Numbered from the stretch's first letter, positions 1 through 30,907 are shown. The stretch: 64,000 nucleotides of DNA from an uncultured Gammaproteobacteria bacterium (GCA_964496095.1 CAZBWU010000004.1:21366-85365); one strand, 5' to 3'. Notes: a model not told the origin generated them from the letters alone. A program made the numbers and translations.

Positions 1-1489
1 TACTGAAAACCAAGTAAATGACACAATTGACTATCTTCGCGGTCGCGCCACTCTTAAAAAAGCTCCGTTTATCAATCATGAAACTTTGAAAGAAAAAGGA
101 TTAACCGTTGCTGAGTTAGAAAAAATTGAAAAATCGTTAGCTGGTGTATTTGAGCTTGCCTTTGCTTTCAATGTTTGGACATTAGGTGAAGACTGTTTAC
201 AACGACTTGGATTCTCTAGTGAGCAATATAATGATCCTAACTTTAATTTGCTTTCTGCTCTTGGATTTACGGCTGAACAAATTGCAACTGCCAATGAATT
301 TGTCTGTGGAGCTATGACTATTGAAGGCGCCCCACATTTACGCAAAGAACATTACGCTGTCTTTGATACTGCGAATAAAAATGGTAAAAAAGGTCAGCGC
401 TATATTCACTTCCTTGGCCACATCCGGATGATGGCCGCTGTTCAACCATTTTTATCTGGCGCAATTTCCAAGACTATCAACATGCCACACGAAGCCACGC
501 TTGATGATGTCAAAACCGCTTATGTCGCTTCATGGAAGTTGGGTCTAAAAGCGATGGCCTTGTATCGTGACGGTTCTAAATTATCGCAACCTTTGTCTGC
601 CAAATCTGATAAGAAAAAAGAAGATGCTAGCGAAGTAAAAGTAGAAGAAAGTGTCAAAGTAACCATCTCTGAAAAAAATACAGTCGTAGAAGAACAAAAG
701 GTTAAGAGCTATAGTCTATCAAGTCAAAATGAAGCGGTAATTAATCAGATGGTTTCAGAGGCTCAGGCTTTAATAAAATATAACCATGACGGTTCGGTGC
801 AAGGTAATCGTATTTATGTTCACGGTGAACAAAGAAGGTTGCCGTATAAGCGAGGCGGAATTACAATCAAAGCCAAAATTGCCGGTCAATCACTCTTCTT
901 ACGCACAGGAGAGTATCCAGATGGTAAGTTGGGCGAAATCTTTATTGATATGCATAAAGAAGGTGCCGCTTTCCGCAGTATGCTCAACTTGTTTGCAATA
1001 TCAATCTCTACCGGTTTGCAATATGGTGTAACATTAGAAGAATATGTTGAGAAATTTACCTTTACACGCTTTGAACCAAGCGGAATTACCGATCATCCAA
1101 ATATAAAATTCTGCACATCTATTATTGACTTTGTTTTCCGAGTGCTTGGTATGGAATATCTTGGCCGAACAGATTTTGTCCAAGTTAAACCAACCGGTAT
1201 TCAAAAAAATAAAGCACAACAGATGGAAGAATTATCCGCCAAAGCCGTAGGCCAACATGTTATGCCGTTGGGAGGCAAAATCGAATCAACAGAAAAAACA
1301 CAAACCTCTTTGCCAAGTATGCACGATGAGGACGAGATGCAAGAGCCAGTATCAGATGGAGGTGTGGGCAAGCAATTATCAGGAATGATGGGGGATGCTC
1401 CAGCCTGTGGAACTTGTGGACATATTACAATCCGTAACGGAGCCTGTTATAAATGTCTGAATTGTGGCAGCACTACAGGGTGCTCATAA
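1..1489 (+). CDS. nrdJ: Adenosylcobalamin-dependent (class II) ribonucleotide reductase, C-terminal part. The 5' end is truncated by the window edge: the frame is open back to base 2.
   Basis: RNR-like motifs (KTINMPHEATLDDVKTAYVASWKLGLKAMALYRDGSK). The C-terminus carries a CxxC...CxxC zinc ribbon (CGTCGHITIRNGACYKCLNCG) as in NrdJ. No stop between position 2 and the annotated Met at 86. Confidence 0.6.
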   Translation, partial: TENQVNDTIDYLRGRATLKKAPFINHETLKEKGLTVAELEKIEKSLAGVFELAFAFNVWTLGEDCLQRLGFSSEQYNDPNFNLLSALGFTAEQIATANEFVCGAMTIEGAPHLRKEHYAVFDTANKNGKKGQRYIHFLGHIRMMAAVQPFLSGAISKTINMPHEATLDDVKTAYVASWKLGLKAMALYRDGSKLSQPLSAKSDKKKEDASEVKVEESVKVTISEKNTVVEEQKVKSYSLSSQNEAVINQMVSEAQALIKYNHDGSVQGNRIYVHGEQRRLPYKRGGITIKAKIAGQSLFLRTGEYPDGKLGEIFIDMHKEGAAFRSMLNLFAISISTGLQYGVTLEEYVEKFTFTRFEPSGITDHPNIKFCTSIIDFVFRVLGMEYLGRTDFVQVKPTGIQKNKAQQMEELSAKAVGQHVMPLGGKIESTEKTQTSLPSMHDEDEMQEPVSDGGVGKQLSGMMGDAPACGTCGHITIRNGACYKCLNCGSTTGCS

Positions 1490-1512
1490 AATTTACTTGA
1501 TCGTGGGTAATA

Positions 1513-1548
1513 ATCCCCGTCCCGCATGCGCGGGACGGGGATTATAGT
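1513..1548 (+). terminator. Rho-independent terminator-like GC hairpin after the RNR gene
   Basis: Perfect palindrome CCCCGTCCCGC-ATG-CGCGGGACGGGG followed by AT-rich sequence. Confidence 0.5.
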
Positions 1549-1566
1549 TTAATAATTGAATTCTAT

Positions 1567-2121
1567 ATGCCTATTTATACAAAAACTGGAGATAAAGGCG
1601 AAACCTCACTTCTTGGTGGTAAGCGAGTTAGCAAAAGTTGTCTTGAGATGCAAGTGATTGGAGAGATTGACGAACTCAATGCTTGTTTGGGAGTAATCGT
1701 AGCTTTGTTCAATGGTCATGCTGAGTCAAACGAAGAGCCGATGTCCAAATTTCTACAATCGATCCAGCGAGATCTTTTTAAAGTTGGCGCTGAGCTCGCT
1801 TCGCTTCAAAGTCCTTTGGGGGACAAGATAAATAAAATTGATAATACACGTGTAGGAGAAATGGAAGCTTATGTTGATAAATTTTGGGGCGATTTGCCAG
1901 AGTTAAAAAATTTTATTCTGCCTGGCGGTAGTTTGGCTGGTGCAGAAATCCATCGCGCTCGCACAGTATGCCGTCGAGCCGAAAGGCAATTGGTTGATTT
2001 TTCCAAAAACAATCCTATTCGTCCAGAGCTGAGTATATATATCAATAGACTAAGCGATTTTCTTTTTGCTCTGGCCAGGTTTGTGAATTCTAAAGAAGGG
2101 GCTGAAGAAATAATAGTCTAA
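1567..2121 (+). CDS. ATP:cob(I)alamin adenosyltransferase, PduO-type (MMAB family)
   Basis: N-terminal IYTKTGDKGETSL motif and a size of about 184 aa are typical of PduO-type adenosyltransferases. Confidence 0.8.
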   Translation: MPIYTKTGDKGETSLLGGKRVSKSCLEMQVIGEIDELNACLGVIVALFNGHAESNEEPMSKFLQSIQRDLFKVGAELASLQSPLGDKINKIDNTRVGEMEAYVDKFWGDLPELKNFILPGGSLAGAEIHRARTVCRRAERQLVDFSKNNPIRPELSIYINRLSDFLFALARFVNSKEGAEEIIV

Positions 2122-2281
2122 ACCGAGTCCTGTACCGTTTGCTCGGAGCAATCTGGTGCGGGGTTGATTTATTATCGTAATAATGATAATATTTTTTTGT
2201 AATTGTAATGAAGTGAGGGGAAAGGTTGTTGGACAAACTTTCTCGAACGAATTAGCAATTATTTGTTAATTTTTTGACAAT

Positions 2282-2365
2282 GCCCTGGTGGTGAAATTGG
2301 TAGACACAAGGGACTTAAAATCCCTCGCCGAAAGGCATGCGGGTTCGATTCCCGCCTAGGGCACA
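2282..2365 (+). tRNA. tRNA-Leu (anticodon TAA) with long variable arm
   Basis: Acceptor GCCCTGG/CTAGGGC, T-arm GCGGGTTCGATTCCCGC, anticodon loop CTTAAAA, long extra arm. Confidence 0.8.
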
Positions 2366-2366
2366 T

Positions 2367-2397
2367 ACAAAAAAACTCACGAAAGTGAGTTTTTTTG
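2367..2397 (+). terminator. Rho-independent terminator after tRNA-Leu
   Basis: AAAAAAACTCAC-GAAA-GTGAGTTTTTTT hairpin with T-run. Confidence 0.7.
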
Positions 2398-2530
2398 TAT
2401 TATAACTTTATGAGAGTTTAGGATTTATTCTTGGAAGGAATTAAATATACCATCGAGCGACCTTGCTATTCTCGGTATTTAATAAGTATGATAAAATTTA
2501 CATTAAGAATTGATTTAAAATATTTTTTAT

Positions 2531-3022
2531 ATGCAAAAAGCGCCTGTCCCCGCAAATGAAAAAGAGCGTGTCTGCGCTCTTGAAGGGTTAAAACTTTTGG
2601 ATACAGCCTCTGAAGAAAGATTTGATCGTCTGACAAAAGAAGCAACTAGTAGGTTTTCTGTGCCAATTTCCACCATCACACTGATAGATAAAGATCGTGA
2701 ATGGTTCAAATCAGCCCAAGGTCTACAAGCAAAAGAGGGTCCCAGAGGCGTATCTTTTTGTGGGCATGCATTAATGTCGCAAATAGTAATGATTATTCCT
2801 GACACTTCAGCTGATCCACGCTTTGCAGATAATCCAATGGTTAAGGGGAAACCATTTATCAGGTTCTATGCTGGCAAATCTTTGTATGACCACAAAAGCA
2901 ATCTGCCTGTAGGTGTGTTTTGTATAAAAGACCATAAGCCAAGAGAAATGAGTGTAAAAGATCTGAGCGACTTCCTTGATTTAGCTGACAGAGCCGAAAA
3001 GGAGATTAATAAACATATATAA
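2531..3022 (+). CDS. Stand-alone GAF domain protein
   Basis: GAF-like pattern (ERF..L...A...F..P.S.ITLID.DR.WFKS..GL.....PR..SFC). Confidence 0.55.
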   Translation: MQKAPVPANEKERVCALEGLKLLDTASEERFDRLTKEATSRFSVPISTITLIDKDREWFKSAQGLQAKEGPRGVSFCGHALMSQIVMIIPDTSADPRFADNPMVKGKPFIRFYAGKSLYDHKSNLPVGVFCIKDHKPREMSVKDLSDFLDLADRAEKEINKHI

Positions 3023-5293: not shown

Positions 5294-5911
5294 ATGTATT
5301 TGGTAGATAATTTAAAAAATAATAATAAAGGTATAACGCTAGTTGAACTATTGGTAGCTACGGGCATTTTTGTATTTTTAGCTGCCGGAATTGTGTCTCT
5401 TTATTTGACTAGTCGAAAATATAACGACATTGTTTGGGAGCAGTTAAAAACTCAGAATGAAGGCAGAAAAGTAGTGCAAGATTTTACCAATGAACTTCGT
5501 ATTGCTTCACAATCAAGTGTCGGTGCTTATCCTGTAGCGGGAGCGTCTAGTACTGAAATTATTTTTTATACCAATCTTGATAGTGATACTTTGATGGAAA
5601 GAGTGAGGTATTTTTTTTCAGGTAGAATTTTAAAAAAAGGCGTTATTAAGCCAACGGGCAATCCGCTTATCTATAATTCGGTGAATGAAGTTATTACCGA
5701 AGTGGCCCACGATGTAGTCACGTCCACTTCAAAGTTATTATATTATGATTCTAATTTTACAGGCTCAGAAACTCATTTAGTTAGCCCAATAAGCGTTACT
5801 AGTATTAGGGTGGTTGGTATTCAGCTAACATTGGAGGAAGACCCAAATGCATCACCTGTGCCGTTTTTTATAGAATCAAAAGTAATGCTGCGAAACTTGA
5901 AGGACAACTAG
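5294..5911 (+). CDS. Type-IV-pilin-like (minor pilin/pseudopilin) protein
   Basis: N-terminus KGITLVELLVATGIFVFLAAGIVSLY is a prepilin-type methylation motif. Confidence 0.65.
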   Translation: MYLVDNLKNNNKGITLVELLVATGIFVFLAAGIVSLYLTSRKYNDIVWEQLKTQNEGRKVVQDFTNELRIASQSSVGAYPVAGASSTEIIFYTNLDSDTLMERVRYFFSGRILKKGVIKPTGNPLIYNSVNEVITEVAHDVVTSTSKLLYYDSNFTGSETHLVSPISVTSIRVVGIQLTLEEDPNASPVPFFIESKVMLRNLKDN

Positions 5912-5920
5912 GTTATTTTT

Positions 5921-7318
5921 ATGATATTAGAAAATTTTAAAAATTTAATAAAAACTTTTTCTCAAAACACACGTGGAAATATTTTGTTGTTTGTTATGAT
6001 TTTTGGCACGATTAGTTTGTCTATTATTATCATCGGTGTTTCTGGTTATGCTATTTCTGAAAACTCAGCCTCTAATAGGAAACATAATAGTGAAATGGCC
6101 TTGCAAATTGCCGATGCTGGAATTAATTATTATCGTTGGCATTTAGCTCATAATAAGACCGATTATTATGACGGTAATAGTTCTAGTACGCCTGGGCCAT
6201 ATGTACATAGTTACACAGATAAGTTAGGTAATGTTATTGGTCATTTCTCTTTAGAGATTACTCCGCCTACTTTAGGTTCCAGTATTATTATTATTGAATC
6301 TACAGGTTGGCTGGATGCCCAGCCAAATAGTCGTGTAAAAATAAAGGCCAGAGTTGGTTTTCCAGCTTTGACTGATTATTCATTTTTGACAGCCACTGAT
6401 GTTTGGATTGGAGATACTGAAACTACTCATGGTAAATTTCATGCCAACGGTGGTATTAGGTTTGATGGTATCACAGACGCGCCTATTACCAGCGCTATGG
6501 CAACTTACACTTGTAAAGTTAGTCATGGTTGTGGAAACCAAACTAAATCTGGAATTTGGGGTACAGGCGGGCCAAACACTTATTGGAGTTACCCTCAGCC
6601 AGCCAAAGATTTTACTGCGATTACAGGGGTATTGGCTCAGATTGAAGATAACGCTAATCCCGATAACGGGGGGTTAAAGTTTACTTCTTCAGGTCAACAG
6701 GGTTGGCGTCTTAAATTTACTTCTTCTAGCCAGTTTGTTGCCTACAAAGTTTTGACTACAGATTGTTATAAAGCCAAAGATATAGGGGATAATAACTATT
6801 TTTGGCCATGTATTGATATTAAAACTACTGACGCCGGCACTACCTATGATTTACCAAGCAATGGTTTTATTTTTGTTGATGATAATGTTTGGGTTGATGG
6901 GGTGGTGCATGGTCGAGTCACCGTAGGTACTTCAGTTGGTAAGTCTATTATTATAAATGGAAATATTACTTATTATGCCAAAGATGGTACTGATGTGCTT
7001 GGGCTTATGGCTGAGCAAAATATTCTTATCCCGCACAACTCCCCCGACAGCCTAGAAGTTGACGGGGCGCTACTTGCCAAGAGCGGAGCTGCAAAAAGAT
7101 ATTATTATCCAAGTGATAAAAAAACGAGTTTGCTCATCTATGGTTCTATTATTACCTACAAAACTTGGACTTGGAGTTGGTCTTCTGGAGGGGGAGTTAT
7201 TATATCTGGCTATGTAAATACCGACGCTACCTATGATGCTAATCTTACTTATGGTCCGCCACCAGGTTTTCCAGTAGGTTCTGAATATAACCTATTGAGT
7301 TGGGAAGTTTTAAAATAA
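5921..7318 (+). CDS. Hypothetical membrane-anchored protein in the pilin cluster (PilX-like minor pilin candidate)
   Basis: Single N-terminal TM (ILLFVMIFGTISLSIIIIGVSGYAI), large Gly/Thr-rich ectodomain, directly downstream of two prepilin genes. Confidence 0.4.
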   Translation: MILENFKNLIKTFSQNTRGNILLFVMIFGTISLSIIIIGVSGYAISENSASNRKHNSEMALQIADAGINYYRWHLAHNKTDYYDGNSSSTPGPYVHSYTDKLGNVIGHFSLEITPPTLGSSIIIIESTGWLDAQPNSRVKIKARVGFPALTDYSFLTATDVWIGDTETTHGKFHANGGIRFDGITDAPITSAMATYTCKVSHGCGNQTKSGIWGTGGPNTYWSYPQPAKDFTAITGVLAQIEDNANPDNGGLKFTSSGQQGWRLKFTSSSQFVAYKVLTTDCYKAKDIGDNNYFWPCIDIKTTDAGTTYDLPSNGFIFVDDNVWVDGVVHGRVTVGTSVGKSIIINGNITYYAKDGTDVLGLMAEQNILIPHNSPDSLEVDGALLAKSGAAKRYYYPSDKKTSLLIYGSIITYKTWTWSWSSGGGVIISGYVNTDATYDANLTYGPPPGFPVGSEYNLLSWEVLK

Positions 7319-22653: not shown

Positions 22654-24024
22654 ATGACTTTACGTTCTATTAATCCAGCCACGCTGGGAGTAATATTAGA
22701 GACAGAAGAACTTTCCTCAGCAGAGCTTGAAGCAAAAATTTCTATTGCCGAGATCGCAGCTAGAGCTTGGAAAGAAACATCTTTTGCAGAGCGCAGTATC
22801 TTGATGAAGCGTGCGGCCTTAGAGTTGCGTACGCAAAGTGCGTCACTCGCCAAAATTATTACCGGCGAAGTGGGTAAAACCTTAGCTGCCTCAGCAGCTG
22901 AAATTGAAAAATGCGCGACGGTCTGTGATTATTATAGTGACAACGCTGAGAATTTTTTACAGCCTGAAATTGTGCTCACAGAAACAAGTAAAAATTATAT
23001 ACGATGTGAACCTCTTGGGATTGTGTTAGCTGTAATGCCATGGAACTTTCCTTTGTGGCAAGTATTTCGTTTTGCAGCACCAGCGTTGATGGCTGGGAAT
23101 ATAGGCATACTTAAACATGCTTCCAATGTGCAGGGGAGTGCTGCGGCTATTGAGCGGATATTTATTGAGGCTGGATTTCCAAGTGGTGTGTTTTCTAATT
23201 TGGCTTTAGGCTCTGCGCGTGTGGCTGGTATTATTCGAGATCCACGTATCAAAGCTGTAACCCTGACTGGTAGTGAGAAAGCTGGTAGTGATGTTGCTTC
23301 TATTGCCGGTAAAGAGATAAAAAAGGTGGTGCTTGAACTTGGTGGCAGTGACCCATTTATTGTCTTGTCTGATGCTGATTTAAATATGGCTGTAGCAACA
23401 GCTGTATCTGCACGGATGCAATCAAATGCTGGTCAGAGTTGTATCGCGGCCAAGAGATTTATTGTACATGAAAGTATCGCCGATGAATTTGTCAAACTTT
23501 TAGTGGAAGCAGTTAGTAAGCTCAAAGTTGGAGATCCGCTTGAGTCTACTACTAATGTAGGGCCACTTGCTAACGAACAGATGGTGAGAGATATTGAACA
23601 GCAAGTTGCATTATCAGTAGCCAAAGGCGCTCGTGTTTTGGTTGGTGGTTCGCACGCAGATATGAAAGGGTGTTTTTATCTGCCAACTGTATTAACTGAG
23701 GTCACCAAAGGAATGCCTGTCTATGACGAAGAAGTCTTTGGACCAGTATTGCCAGTTATTACTTTTAAAGATGTAGATGAGGCTGTCGCTATTGCCAATG
23801 ACAGCCCGTATGGTTTGGGCGCAACCATCTTCAGTCGTGATATTGCCCTGGCAACAAGTCTTGCAGAGAAAATAGAGTCTGGCAGTGTATTTATAAATAG
23901 TCAGGTGAAATCAGATCCACGACTTCCTTTTGGCGGTATCAAAAAATCAGGCTATGGTCGTGAGTTGTCGCACTATGGCATCAAAGAATTTGTGAGCATT
24001 AAGACAATTTCAGTGTCTGAATAA
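22654..24024 (+). CDS. NAD(P)-dependent aldehyde dehydrogenase family protein
   Basis: Catalytic motifs ELGGSDP and GQSCIAAKR; 456 aa. Confidence 0.85.
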   Translation: MTLRSINPATLGVILETEELSSAELEAKISIAEIAARAWKETSFAERSILMKRAALELRTQSASLAKIITGEVGKTLAASAAEIEKCATVCDYYSDNAENFLQPEIVLTETSKNYIRCEPLGIVLAVMPWNFPLWQVFRFAAPALMAGNIGILKHASNVQGSAAAIERIFIEAGFPSGVFSNLALGSARVAGIIRDPRIKAVTLTGSEKAGSDVASIAGKEIKKVVLELGGSDPFIVLSDADLNMAVATAVSARMQSNAGQSCIAAKRFIVHESIADEFVKLLVEAVSKLKVGDPLESTTNVGPLANEQMVRDIEQQVALSVAKGARVLVGGSHADMKGCFYLPTVLTEVTKGMPVYDEEVFGPVLPVITFKDVDEAVAIANDSPYGLGATIFSRDIALATSLAEKIESGSVFINSQVKSDPRLPFGGIKKSGYGRELSHYGIKEFVSIKTISVSE

Positions 24025-24121
24025 GGCTAAAGTACTGTTAATAAAATAGCACCTTCTAGGTCAGTGTTCTGGGTACAAAACTTATCCACAGACTTCCACT
24101 TTTAGCCCGCCTATAAAGGGG

Positions 24122-24150
24122 TTGACAGATGTTTTAGTTTTAGCTATAAT
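24122..24150 (+). promoter_or_regulatory. Perfect-consensus sigma70 promoter driving the 23S-5S operon
   Basis: TTGACA, 17 nt, TATAAT; followed by about 450-nt leader with no 16S gene. Confidence 0.7.
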
Positions 24151-24594
24151 CGTCTGTACGTGTAAAGTCTCGACTCATTCGAGAGCCATGTCCACTACTG
24201 GACCTCTGGGTAAATCTAAGTTTTTCCCCGATTTATCGGGATTATCCTAACCATGATAAACAAGACTAAAATTTTCCTCAGATAATCCAGGTGGTAAAAA
24301 TCTCAATTTTGAGAGACCGCTTGCAGGCGGTCGTTGTGTTTTATAAAAGCATTTCAAACGAAGCGAAAAATTTAAAATAGATTTTTCACTTGGGTTGAAA
24401 TGATAGTGCCGGTTGAAAAGAGTGTACGTTGACAATTCATTGGTCAATTCAACAATAATAGGGTATGTAGTTCCCAAATATAAGTTTGGGATACCTTGAT
24501 GTCAGGCTACGGTTTGACGTCAGGTACATCTACACAAAACACGATGAATTTTCTACAGGACAATAGGCCTGTACGTAGAGAAGCACTCTTTAGT

Positions 24595-27850
<3,256 letters not shown>

Positions 27851-27944: not shown

Positions 27945-28053
27945 CTTGGTGACATGAGCGATTGGGTCACACCTGTTCCCATCCCGAACACAGAAGTTAA
28001 GCCAATCAGCGCCGATGATAGCCGCAAGGCAAAAGTAGGCCGTCGCCAGGACA
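27945..28053 (+). rRNA. rrf: 5S ribosomal RNA
   Basis: CCCATCCCGAACACAGAAGTTAAGC core with terminal helix CTTGGTGAC/GTCGCCAGG. Flanked by the inverted repeat AAAAAGACCATT...AATGGTCTTTTTTT, which serves as processing stem and terminator. Confidence 0.85.
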
Positions 28054-28193: not shown

Positions 28194-29015
28194 ATGGATC
28201 TCTCAATTTTTCAAAATCAAGGCAAATATTTAATGTTGGCTTTTGACCATCGTGATAGTTTTAAAAAATATGTTAATCCTGCTAATCCAGATAAAGCTAC
28301 TGACGAAGATTTAATCAAGGTTAAAAGCATGGTTATAAACGCCCTTGAAGATCAATTTAGCGGTGTGCTTTTAGATGTAGATTGGGGTTTAGCTGGCTAC
28401 AAATCAAAAAATAAACCTTATCTGTTACCTTTAGAAAAAAGCGGTTACACAGATGTTGAAGGTGATAGAACAACAGAATTAGAATACACAGCCAAACAAT
28501 TAAAAGATCTGGGAGCAAGCGGAACAAAATTATTATTGTATTTTAATCCAGAAGCCAAAAATTGTGACGAGCAGCTAGAAACTGCTAAACAAGCCTTGGA
28601 AGATTCGCGTCAAAACGACCTGCCTTTATTTTTGGAAATTGTGACATATGGTAATGAAGAATTAGGCAAGAGCCGATGTGAGTGGGTTCTGCGCTCGGTG
28701 CAAATGTTATTAGAAAGCGAAGTTGTGCCAGATGTGTGGAAATTGGAGTATCCAGGTGATTTGGAATCATGTAAAAAAATAGATGAGTTGGTTGGGAATA
28801 TTCCTTGGATTCTTCTAACTCGAGGAGAAAAGTTTGATAAATTTGATGAGCAACTGAAAGACGCGGTGGCAGCCGGAGCGGTTGGATTTTTGGCTGGCAG
28901 AGCCTTGTGGCAGGAGATAGGAGAGTGCAGGACAGATGAAGATAGACAGGAGTTTTTGGACAAAACAGTGAAAAATAGGTTTAAGATTATTTCAGATATT
29001 GTTTTAGGAAAATAA
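28194..29015 (+). CDS. Class I aldolase of the LacD/DeoC-like family (tagatose/fructose-bisphosphate aldolase-like). The start is uncertain: the track ORF begins at 28098, but the ATG at about 28194 is preferred.
   Basis: GKYLMLAFDHRDSF resembles the LacD motif (ALAIDQRGAL). The upstream 32 codons are hydrophobic and overlap the rRNA terminator. Confidence 0.45.
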   Translation: MDLSIFQNQGKYLMLAFDHRDSFKKYVNPANPDKATDEDLIKVKSMVINALEDQFSGVLLDVDWGLAGYKSKNKPYLLPLEKSGYTDVEGDRTTELEYTAKQLKDLGASGTKLLLYFNPEAKNCDEQLETAKQALEDSRQNDLPLFLEIVTYGNEELGKSRCEWVLRSVQMLLESEVVPDVWKLEYPGDLESCKKIDELVGNIPWILLTRGEKFDKFDEQLKDAVAAGAVGFLAGRALWQEIGECRTDEDRQEFLDKTVKNRFKIISDIVLGK

Positions 29016-29039
29016 ATTTTTTTTGTTCCACCTTTTGTA

Positions 29040-29520
29040 ACCAAAAGCTGGAGTGAAAAGTTTCCGAAGCCTTATACTCGCCGTCGGTACTTCCATCGGT
29101 TCAAACTCACTGTTGTCCTGAACTCAATCGGCCGTCTCTAACGGCCGATCTCACACAGCAGGACAACTTCCAGTCGCTCAAGCGACTGGCAACCGCTCGT
29201 TTTCACCGTGGCAAGTACACGCCGTTTTGTATAGGCTCGGATAGACAATCGTTGTTGTTGGTGCGAGACTTGAAATTAGGAGGTAGCAGACAGAGATGAG
29301 CCGGAGCGGTTCTTCAAAAGAATTCGCCCTGCTGTTTGAGTCCGCCCAAGGCGGATGAGTTCAGGGCGGAAGCGAGGGTGAGTCCTGTCTGGCTCCGAGT
29401 AGTTTCATTAGCTCGCGCTTCTTGCTTACTTCTTCTAAAGAAGTAAGGAAAAGTACTTTATCCACAGAAAAGCTGTCAGAAAAAAATTGACAGCTTTTTT
29501 TGTCTATGTTATGCTTATTT
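29040..29520 (+). ncRNA. Unidentified GC-rich, highly structured noncoding segment (candidate structured RNA); strand unknown
   Basis: No ORF in the track across about 480 nt. GC is clearly above the local background. Nested palindromes: GTTGTCCTG...CGGCCGTCTCTAACGGCCG...CAGGACAAC; CCAGTCGCTCAAGCGACTGG; GCCCTG...TCCGCCCAAGGCGGA...CAGGGC; CTTACTTCTTCTAAAGAAGTAAG. A terminal AGCTGTCAGAAAAAAATTGACAGCTTTTTTTG terminator precedes the downstream gene. Confidence 0.3.
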
Positions 29521-29530
29521 TAGCCAAAAT

Positions 29531-30265
29531 ATGCATACTAATTTCTTACAAAAACTTGGTTTTTCTGACAAGATGTCTACTGTGTATGTAGGCTTGCTTC
29601 GTTTGGGGCCATCTTCAGTACGAGAAGTGGCTGAAAATACAGGTATTAACCGTGGTACCGTCCATGAGCTCCTGAAAGAGTTGAGAGAAAAGGACTTGGT
29701 TGGTTTTTATGAAAAGGATTCTAAGCAGTATTTTGTTGCTGAAGATCCAGCTCGTCTCAATGTCTTGCTTGCCAAGCAGATGGAAGATTTACAAGAAGTA
29801 AAAAAAGATATAGATCAGCTCGTACCGGAATTGAAATCCTTGCACGACAAAGGCGGAGAGCGCCCGGTAGCTCGTTATTTTGAAAAAGAAAAAATCCATG
29901 AAATTTTAGAAGATGTTTTGGAAGTTTGTGAACGAACTGGAGAAATGGAATATCGGATTTATTCTACGGCTGGAATTCGTGAATATATTTATGATGGTTT
30001 TGAAACATTTAGCGACGCGCGTTTGGCTAAAGGCATTGCAGTTAAAGTAATTGCGATTGGTAAAGGTGGTGAGTTGCGCGGTTTGGATGAGCGTAAGTGG
30101 CTCGAAGCATCTTCAGACACACAAACATATATTATTATCTATCCTGGTAAAACTGCATATATTTCTTTGGATGCCAAAAATGAACCAGTGGGAGTAGTGA
30201 TAGAGAATTCCGGCGTCTATGAAACCCAAAAAAATATTTTTGATAGTTTGTGGATTAAAATTTAG
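29531..30265 (+). CDS. TrmB-family transcriptional regulator (HTH)
   Basis: N-terminal KLGFSDKMSTVYVGLLRLGPSSVREVAENTGINRGTVHELLKELREKDLV winged-helix as in TrmB. Confidence 0.55.
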   Translation: MHTNFLQKLGFSDKMSTVYVGLLRLGPSSVREVAENTGINRGTVHELLKELREKDLVGFYEKDSKQYFVAEDPARLNVLLAKQMEDLQEVKKDIDQLVPELKSLHDKGGERPVARYFEKEKIHEILEDVLEVCERTGEMEYRIYSTAGIREYIYDGFETFSDARLAKGIAVKVIAIGKGGELRGLDERKWLEASSDTQTYIIIYPGKTAYISLDAKNEPVGVVIENSGVYETQKNIFDSLWIKI

Positions 30266-30268
30266 CAT

Positions 30269-30907
30269 ATGTTTAATTATTCTTTTATAGATTGGGATAA
30301 TACTTTATATGACACTGTGGCTCTGCAAGCCGATATTTTTGGTATCTTTTCTAAGTTTGGAGCCACTGAAAATCATATTAAAGAAACTTTTCAGCGTTCG
30401 CTTTGTACAGTATCTCCTCATCAGTACGACTATACATTTGAGGAACATGCACAGTTTTTGCGGGAATTAGGTTATAATATTCCAAGTATTGTCGAAGACG
30501 AGCTTAACGCTTTGTTTTTAAAAGACTATCTTTTTTCAGATACGGTATTATTTTTAGACTTTTTAAAAAAAATTTCAAAAAACCTTATTTTACTTTCCGC
30601 TGGAGATGAAAAATTTCAGTTAAATAAGATTAAAAATAGTAAAATTTATAAAAATTTTAATGAAGTAGTTATTGTTAGCGGTGGAAAAGAAAATTATTTA
30701 TTAAATCGTTGCAAAAACGAAAAGATTTTTTTTGTTAATGATAATTTGCGAGAGAATGCATCTGTAAAAAATACATTGCCATCTGTTGTTTTAATTACAA
30801 AGCTTAATACGACGCGTTACTCAGAAGAAGATGCTAAACAAATCAAAGTTCCTTATTTTTCAACCTTAACTCAAATTAAACAATATGTTGAACAACAACT
30901 TGGATAA
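30269..30907 (+). CDS. HAD-superfamily hydrolase
   Basis: Motif I FIDWDNTLYD (DxDxT) near N-terminus. Confidence 0.55.
   Translation: MFNYSFIDWDNTLYDTVALQADIFGIFSKFGATENHIKETFQRSLCTVSPHQYDYTFEEHAQFLRELGYNIPSIVEDELNALFLKDYLFSDTVLFLDFLKKISKNLILLSAGDEKFQLNKIKNSKIYKNFNEVVIVSGGKENYLLNRCKNEKIFFVNDNLRENASVKNTLPSVVLITKLNTTRYSEEDAKQIKVPYFSTLTQIKQYVEQQLG

Follow-up and report, generated by a model that had tools for sequence, protein, structure and literature searches.

What kind of element is the GC-rich, hairpin-dense and apparently non-coding segment that lies around positions 29,040 to 29,520 of a 64,000-nt stretch of genomic DNA (CAZBWU010000004.1:21366-85365, assembly GCA_964496095.1, deposited as an uncultured Gammaproteobacteria bacterium; the whole stretch is called the window hereafter)? 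A first reading made from the sequence alone (in the following the sequence-only reading) had proposed a candidate large structured RNA. Our comparative analysis leads to a different answer, which we hold to be rather likely: the element, located at 29028-29456, belongs to a dispersed family of palindromic intergenic repeats, polymorphic for insertion, of which it represents one copy and which occurs in Magasanikbacteria-like genomes of the candidate phyla radiation (CPR, Patescibacteria). The family would be non-autonomous and resemble miniature inverted-repeat transposable elements (MITEs) or bacterial interspersed mosaic elements (BIMEs).

The segment fills the gap between an aldolase-like open reading frame (ORF) of the DeoC/LacD-DUF2090 type, which ends at 29015, and a TrmB-like ORF starting at 29531, both on the + strand. 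In line with the sequence-only reading, this gap (29016-29530) is devoid of ORFs of at least 60 aa and contains just chance ORFs of 30-36 aa. It is not strictly the longest such stretch of the window, as had been claimed, because the gap at 24024-24606 upstream of the 23S rRNA gene spans 582 nt. GC enrichment was confirmed (50.7% for the element and 39.2% for the window); in 200-nt windows, the GC fraction is 0.47-0.535 across 29000-29499 and 0.27-0.43 in the flanks. All described palindromes were recovered as well (Table 1). The predicted folding energy of the + strand amounts to -191.8 kcal/mol (z = -8.2), which was reached by 0 of 100 shuffled sequences, and that of the - strand to -178.7 kcal/mol (z = -7.6).

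Next, we compared the aldolase/TrmB junction between related loci. Carriers of the element at this site are the window and locus L001 only, the latter representing a different species, the flanking DNA of which is ~85% identical; the two copies of the element are 88% identical. Contigs L087 and L088 stem from the same strain as the window. Empty junctions, featuring a spacer of ~80 nt instead of ~515 nt, were found in L086 (TrmB identity to the window 98% at the protein and 91% at the DNA level), L090 (97% protein), L081 (93% protein), L082 (92% protein), the P0012 contig (90% protein) and L003 (84% protein). In L085, the TrmB gene shows 93% DNA identity to that of the window, follows a different upstream gene and is not accompanied by the element. 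Since the TrmB genes of L085 (93%) and L086 (91%) are nearer to the window at the DNA level than that of the carrier L001 (89%), the presence of the element is patchy. By sequence comparison, the element is an insertion at the aldolase/TrmB site. A second filled/empty polymorphism was detected in the ftsK-rpoB spacer, which is filled in L167 and empty in L185-L187 (RpoB 90-93% identical).

A potential third carrier, L083, was discarded as a chimeric contig that matches L001 exactly over its first 200 nt and L084 over the remainder (200-3011), the junction lying in the conserved promoter. Breaks within the element were seen in Logan contigs (L083 and the start of L087), and such repeats disturb assemblies. 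The spacer upstream of TrmB is, in addition, a hot spot of other insertions, with an IS3-like transposase remnant in L084 (1-1330) and a different GC-rich hairpin repeat (CTGTCATCCCCGTGAAAACGGGGATCCAG...) in L004 (~2560-2680).

The right border of the element required separate attention, as the sequence-only reading had let the segment end with a strong terminator. A hairpin with a T-run is indeed present at 29466-29500 and, with its GC-containing stem and the U-tract after it, has the form of an intrinsic terminator, but it is part of the conserved control region of the neighbouring TrmB-like gene, outside the GC-rich element. The hairpin includes the palindrome AAAAGCTGTCA-N9-TGACAGCTTTT (CTGTCAG-N7-TTGACAG in the conserved block), and a TTGACA-17-TATGCT promoter precedes the TrmB-like gene, its -35 box falling within the terminator-like sequence. 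The upstream block comprising these features is retained where the aldolase-TrmB spacer measures only ~80 nt, with equivalents, for example, in L002 (3318-3391) and L003 (1328-1389). Because relatives without the element keep this block, we assign it to the TrmB promoter and a presumed operator rather than to a terminator of the element's own. The block predates the GC-rich element, and it probably serves in autoregulation as an operator and, at the same time, as a terminator of the upstream gene.

We further looked into the architecture of the element. A profile built from 23 halves matches the left ('alpha') unit at 29029-29243 (E = 1e-49) and, on the - strand, also the right ('beta') unit at 29384-29297 (E = 2.8e-8), the latter being a diverged inverted copy. 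Module A and the reverse complement of module B form a 70-nt alignment (z = 7.2, 0 of 300 shuffles), and the apex pattern has an exact match in module B at 29328-29365 on the - strand. From the inverted likeness of the modules and the match of the alpha profile to the right half, it follows that the element consists of two inverted ~200-nt units forming an imperfect palindrome. Both are Y-shaped and carry on one arm an invariant apex motif, CCTGAACTC-(hairpin)-CTCAAACAGCAGG. The inner 9-bp stem of module A is entirely different in sequence between copies; its length and its loop TYTMTAA are constant. Hairpin H likewise varies in length and sequence, yet always remains a hairpin (helix 8, two-sided changes in 6 of 8 pairs). 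Terminal hairpin P0 borders nearly all family copies at one end or at both; its stems covary, and its consensus is ACWTTTT followed by CCACCTTTTG..CAAAAGGTGG. The long-range inverted repeats are centred at 29241-29245, and the central hairpin of L001 forms a perfect 8-bp stem. Copy L001 also possesses a 25-nt terminal inverted repeat (TIR; 2316-2340 and 2753-2776, 92% complementary, E = 1.5e-5), of which the left copy is degenerate. TIRs were likewise found in L168 (~41 nt, same type) and L045 (~30 nt, perfect). In the window copy, a 26-nt deletion has removed the left terminal repeat, and with this loss the copy is probably immobile.

Table 1 Features of the palindromic element, of the adjacent TrmB upstream block and of the second family carrying the apex motif (positions refer to the window unless a locus is given).
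Feature	Position	Strand	Description
Whole palindromic element	29028-29456		Two inverted ~200-nt hairpin units, short centre, terminal hairpins
Terminal hairpin P0	29028-29051		CCACCTTTTG-TAAC-CAAAAGCTGG, after a T-run
Left (alpha) unit	29028-29245		Lower stem 29063-29106 with 29199-29241; three-way junction bearing module A and hairpin H
Module A	29112-29167	+	Stem GTTGTCCTG/CAGGACAAC around apex CCTGAACTC-(hairpin 29127-29149)-CTCACACAGCAGG
Palindrome GTTGTCCTG/CAGGACAAC	29112-29120 / 29159-29167		
Palindrome ATCGGCCGT/ACGGCCGAT	29127-29135 / 29141-29149		
Hairpin H	29170-29189		CCAGTCGC-TCAA-GCGACTGG
Palindrome CCAGTCGCT/AGCGACTGG	29170-29178 / 29181-29189		
Central variable hairpin	29244-29259		Symmetry centre; 8-nt indel compared to L001
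Right (beta) unit	29260-29419		Closing stem GGTGCGAG/CTCGCGCT, small hairpin 29308-29325, module B
Module B	29326-29367	-	Apex motif of module A on the opposite strand; + strand reads GCCCTGCTGTTTGAG-hairpin-GAGTTCAGGGC
Palindrome GCCCTG/CAGGGC	29326-29331 / 29362-29367		Around TCCGCC..GGCGGA
Right terminal hairpin	29425-29447		CTTACTTCTT-CTA-AAGAAGTAAG
TrmB upstream block	29458-29515	+	Outside the element; conserved in ~40 of 80 related loci, element-free ones included
DnaA-box-like sequence	29458-29466		TTATCCACA, a perfect DnaA-box sequence upstream of the TrmB-like gene
Terminator-like hairpin/palindrome	29466-29500		14-bp stem, then T7
Loci of the second family	L093 4320-4950; L098, L106, L110, L131, L132, L169, L171, L172, L174-L176		

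How widespread is this architecture? An nhmmer search with the window element returned about 34 copies or halves, with full-length homologues at more than 15 metagenome loci, and the search motif common to both halves, CCTGAACTC-N(6-36)-CTCAMACAGCAGG, is present in 92 metagenome stretches. Two copies reside on one 389-kb contig (L160/L168) and another two in L166. The copies are located next to unrelated housekeeping genes (RNase J, an EF-G-like GTPase, S1, FtsW, an aminoacyl-tRNA synthetase, GatB, RpoB, FtsK, MnmA, YebC), and a comparison of the neighbouring genes of the loci revealed no protein family recurring beside them. The RpoB protein adjoining the L167 copy is 77-88% identical to proteins of Patescibacteria and Magasanikbacteria. 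As to habitat, L001, L101, L103, L109, L127, L152-L155 and L159 derive from 0.1-0.2 um fractions of Hainich groundwater. The units appear in different combinations, as alpha-beta dimers (the window, L001, L168, L163 and others), as alpha-alpha' dimers (L152, L153, L160, L167) or as solo beta-type units with the apex motif (L045 1101-1315, L042 436-650, L078 1197-1384). Truncated extra terminal hairpins immediately outside several copies suggest repeated insertion or rearrangement at the ends. The solo units of L045 and L042 are found directly 3' of the 5S rRNA gene in the geometry of a terminator (A-tract, hairpin, T-tract), with a C-G to U-A compensatory change between the species.

The apex motif is not confined to this family, but caps otherwise unrelated hairpin elements on contigs ranging from 34% to 72% GC. 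Among 59 pattern matches outside the family, 33 sit on top of another hairpin that adds 5 or more consecutive pairs, and the others are apparently coding sequence or matches by chance. A second family, also without a match in Rfam, consists of ~450-630-nt structured and partly self-complementary elements on low-GC contigs, mostly between convergent genes (Table 1). A minimal 28-nt apex on ~120-nt hairpins was found on about 15-19 contigs, some of them from the human gut. Within a group of 64-72% GC, locus L121 (72% GC, 1060-1590) contains two inverted apex-motif units ~350 nt apart, which diverge like those of the CPR element. Rfam matched none of these groups. Loops are not enriched in GNRA or UNCG tetraloops; the minimal apex loops read GCGNAGC, a classic stable DNA mini-hairpin. 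Altogether, we tentatively propose, while rating it as doubtful, that the apex CCUGCUGUUUGAG-(loop/hairpin)-GAGUUCAGG (better-folding strand), often in divergent inverted pairs, marks a new phylum-spanning class of structure-specific modules. These might be a new and widespread class of non-coding RNA (ncRNA) with a dedicated protein partner, or folded single-stranded DNA (ssDNA) with Y-shaped ends resembling inverted terminal repeats (ITRs), on which an as yet unrecognised machinery of transposition or replication would act.

In addition, a comparison with L001 and across 23 half-elements showed that helices covary and pairs are preserved. The 43 substitutions between the window copy and L001 break 5-6 pairs of the structure predicted from one sequence, while 14-20 would be expected under random placement, and they include 4 double compensatory changes (0.65 expected, P about 0.003). 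The RNAalifold consensus fold of both copies comprises 141 pairs with 4 double changes, about 10 G.U-compatible single changes and 0 broken pairs. Across the 23 homologous halves, 37/68 pairs underwent double changes, and the covariation score of 0.208 compares to 0.088 +/- 0.006 for shuffles and at most 0.07 for slid partners. Scored by strand, covariation is about equal (0.203 vs 0.226, slid partners at most 0.076). Sequence conservation peaks in loops and internal loops. As a reference for divergence, we used the adjacent TrmB genes, which are 89% identical in DNA and 98% in protein between the window and L001. Given an 11% difference in nucleotides but 2% in residues, and an element that is 88% identical, the synonymous sites must be far more diverged than the element. 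Taking these sites as the estimate of the neutral rate, the element diverges below it, and its hairpins are kept by compensatory change.

Does this structure belong to any known class? At gathering thresholds, no Rfam family matched 29028-29456, in agreement with the sequence-only reading, in which RNase P, tmRNA, SRP and 6S could not be recognised by eye. At E <= 10, no relevant match in the element emerged either; sub-threshold noise of 16-22 bits came from snoRNA and sRNA models in the AT-rich 3' flank. The scan covered RNase P, SRP, tmRNA, 6S, group I/II introns, HEARO, IS605-orfB, OLE/GOLLD/ROOL, raiA and other families, and gave 0 matches also for six further copies and 16 further motif-bearing loci. 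ARAGORN reported no tmRNA or tRNA-like features in the segment. Manual inspection for group I (P/Q/R/S) and group II (GUGYG, domain V) intron elements was unconvincing and found no support from covariance models. Six-frame peptides of the element, screened against a 5.8-billion-protein collection with a view to spurious ORFs on homologous copies, yielded 0 homologues. As a possible small ORF or type I toxin, we considered a Shine-Dalgarno sequence with ATG at 29281-29298, which was rejected as it is not conserved in L001 (ATG to ACG). Using blastn, the window element and two other motif carriers gave no match to phages, plasmids and E. coli genomes, which rules out an rRNA-like fragment, and exact 20-22-mers from the invariant blocks returned nothing from viral and metagenome collections, where only the two-part apex motif common to both halves led to further copies. 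Literature searches by topic and by motif sequence found no description of this repeat family, and it is absent from Rfam 15. Of the proposed large structured RNA, the notion of a conserved, structure-constrained nucleic acid thus persists, fewer pairs being broken than expected and double changes speaking against a decayed gene. The notion of a single gene of the RNase P, SRP, tmRNA or 6S type does not, in view of the missing Rfam match, the empty sites, the two-fold symmetry and the dispersed copies.

The most likely scenario is that the family spreads, or formerly spread, as a non-autonomous mobile DNA in the manner of a MITE or BIME. A mobilising enzyme, or selection on the transcript, would then recognise the folded hairpins instead of the duplex sequence, which would explain the covarying stems with their fixed loops and apex. 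The copy of the window is located between the stop codon of the aldolase gene and the pre-existing operator/terminator hairpin of TrmB. As no terminator lies in between and no sigma-70-like promoter was found inside the window copy, co-transcription appears most likely, and the element is probably transcribed as the 3' untranslated region (UTR) of the aldolase gene. There, its stable structure could protect the 3' end of the mRNA.

Several observations speak against mobility as the whole explanation. The 64-kb window has one copy, and ~650 kb of related TrmB-anchored loci contain none besides L001 and the same-strain contigs, so this lineage has few copies by the standard of a MITE. A search of the loci around the copies detected neither a transposase nor an autonomous relative. 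Regarding target-site duplications, the flanks are strongly diverged: TA is possible in L001 and L045 and ATCT in L078, and there is none in L042. Moreover, what the families have in common is the conserved hairpin apex and not the termini. A TIR-binding transposase would predict the reverse, and the pattern is more typical of a functional RNA or of an ssDNA site that is structure-specific. Orthologous copies with compensatory changes persist across species (window/L001, and L042/L045 after the 5S rRNA gene), which suggests a host-level function over pure selfishness. Further syntenic copies occupy sites upstream of gatB and of a TPR gene. With respect to the recognised molecule, DNA or ssDNA would fit the two-fold symmetry, the loops outside the GNRA/UNCG types and the GCGNAGC apex loops, and RNA would fit the conserved loops and internal loops.

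The main alternative explanation could be that the halves are two structured small RNA genes of ~200 nt, members of a multi-copy ncRNA family, diverging from the centre, with the left one on the - strand, the right one on the + strand ending at 29466-29500, and the apex binding a protein or RNA. We consider this unlikely, even though the strand reading outward from the centre folds better in 34/39 halves (mean 5.8 kcal/mol), including both of the window (left half, -99.4 on the - and -87.4 on the + strand; right half, -84.7 on the + and -64.1 on the - strand). On the outward strand, the apex additionally forms an invariant U.G/U-A/U.G/G.U(C) helix, and in the upper helices several G.U pairs are exchanged for Watson-Crick pairs. 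The inward strand, however, also has conserved G.U pairs in the lower stem and covaries equally, so that counting G.U pairs assigns no consistent strand. The strong conservation of loops and internal loops is as seen in functional RNAs, but the loops lack the GNRA/UNCG enrichment and read, at the minimal apex, as a stable DNA mini-hairpin. Small RNAs would also agree with the equal divergent arrangement in L121 at 72% GC and with the element being mostly co-directional with neighbouring genes (9 vs 2). On the other hand, the window copy has no sigma-70-like promoter at or around its centre, which comprises just ~16 nt, the outward strand has no U-tract after the terminal hairpins, and a filled/empty polymorphism among very close relatives would be unusual for a needed RNA.

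A version of the sequence-only reading, with one + strand RNA of ~430-480 nt, acting in trans as an independent ncRNA or derived from the aldolase 3' UTR and ending at the strong terminator, appears improbable to us. The minimum free energy of the whole segment is 13 kcal/mol lower on the + than on the - strand, but the opposite holds for L001, where the - strand folds better (-187.6 vs -181.9 kcal/mol). The consensus fold with L001, in which no pair is broken, would suit such an RNA; owing to the two-fold symmetry, however, half of any + strand transcript would be antisense to a conserved unit. Both flanking genes are on the + strand and the terminator-like hairpin follows, yet this terminator is older than the element, which the nearest relatives lack and which is dispersed in multiple copies elsewhere, again without an Rfam match. 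A decayed gene remnant or a functionless chance cluster of hairpins, finally, hardly deserves consideration. It could draw on an 80-aa stop-free frame on the + strand, present in both the window and L001, but this frame has no start codon, the substitutions show no synonymous bias and the six-frame peptides lack protein homologues. Folding z-scores of -8, the covariation and dozens of non-coding homologues effectively refute it.

The preferred reading as a MITE- or BIME-like repeat may be compared with known systems. MITEs and related palindromic repeats (Correia/NEMIS, ERIC/IRU, RPE, RUP) likewise have no ORF, carry TIRs, occur in several copies per genome and form a long hairpin when transcribed. 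They are intergenic, often located in spacers of convergent genes or in those that separate a stop codon from a terminator, and show presence/absence polymorphism in close relatives. Our family shares with MITEs the TIRs (L001, L168, L045), the small, non-coding nature, the dispersal in more than 30 copies and the filled/empty polymorphism at two loci; an autonomous element with a transposase sharing the termini was not found among the examined loci, nor was any phage, plasmid or viral match. Unlike these repeats, the element is much larger (430-480 bp), has a covarying Y-shaped interior and a low copy number, conservation across families concerns the hairpin apex instead of the TIR, and no parent insertion sequence (IS) or transposase was identified. 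Repetitive extragenic palindromes (REPs), BIMEs and REPINs, which are mobilised by RAYT proteins (HUH transposases similar to those of IS200/IS605), offer a mosaic of inverted palindromic units, either solo (as in L045, L042, L078) or combined (as in alpha-beta and alpha-alpha'). In both cases, hairpin structure is kept over sequence, which suggests recognition as folded single strands. However, REP units measure 20-40 nt, have a GTAG head and reach hundreds of copies, whereas here few units of ~200 nt are found. Apart from this difference in unit size and copy density, no RAYT gene was seen in the loci examined.

PATEs of the IS200/IS605 group and the omega-RNAs of TnpB/IscB are similar in having a structured unit of ~150-250 nt that abuts a terminus, with the better-folding strand pointing outward, and non-autonomous derivatives are known. 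In contrast to the two-fold symmetric element described here, their ends are asymmetric, with left-end and right-end hairpins on one strand. Within ~3 kb of the copies, no tnpA, tnpB or iscB gene was present in 17 loci, the HEARO and IS605-orfB models remained unmatched, and the flanks are housekeeping genes. A further likeness may exist to the Y- or T-shaped foldbacks of DNAs replicating as single strands (parvovirus ITRs, 3' overhangs of Streptomyces telomeres, plasmid ssoA origins). Shared features would be inverted pairs of three-way junctions, a conserved apex on variable stems, GCGNAGC-type loops and a better-folding strand with its 3' end at the terminus. Unlike such DNAs, the elements here are chromosomal and tiny, contain nothing between their 'ends', are not associated with a Rep protein, terminal protein or primase, and give no evidence of a free replicon.

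Regarding the genomic context, the window derives from a CPR/Patescibacteria genome of Magasanikbacteria type. The TrmB-like protein (29531-30265) has hundreds of homologues with 60-99% identity, and named ones are assigned to Candidatus Magasanikbacteria, to the sugar-specific regulator TrmB or to an unnamed helix-turn-helix protein. The ORF located 3' of it (30269-30907, 212 aa) has no Pfam match; homologues in relatives give weak HAD/Hydrolase matches, and the gene order TrmB - HAD-like - nucleotidyltransferase - GlmS-like is kept across loci. Further upstream, the window contains a 23S rRNA gene (24606-27833) with a group I intron (26704-26906, 58 bits) and extra helices, followed by a 5S rRNA gene at 27945-28051. 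No 16S gene precedes the 23S gene, where a protein ORF ends at 24024. rRNA genes unlinked in this way are typical of CPR genomes. Exact copies of the DnaA-box-like TTATCCACA occur at most 150 nt from the ends of the element at three independent loci, with a background of ~0.07 per kb; sites were recorded in the window (24082 and 29458), in L140 and in the flanks of the L167 copy (5820-6238), which they surround as an inverted pair. The element may prefer to insert near DnaA-box-like sites, or both may share a preference for regulatory spacers.

CPR/Patescibacteria genomes are tiny and tightly packed, and to our knowledge descriptions of mobile or regulatory non-coding elements from them are few. 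In AT-rich genomes, GC-rich structured repeats of this kind can be mistaken for ncRNA genes in screens based on GC content or folding. The family is unusual among intergenic repeats in its Y structure maintained by compensatory changes, its modular recombination of units and an apex that is its most conserved part and is shared with unrelated elements in other phyla. If it is true that this apex is the handle for an unknown enzyme or RNA-binding protein, it would offer a testable entry point to a new mechanism of mobilisation or a new RNA-protein system.
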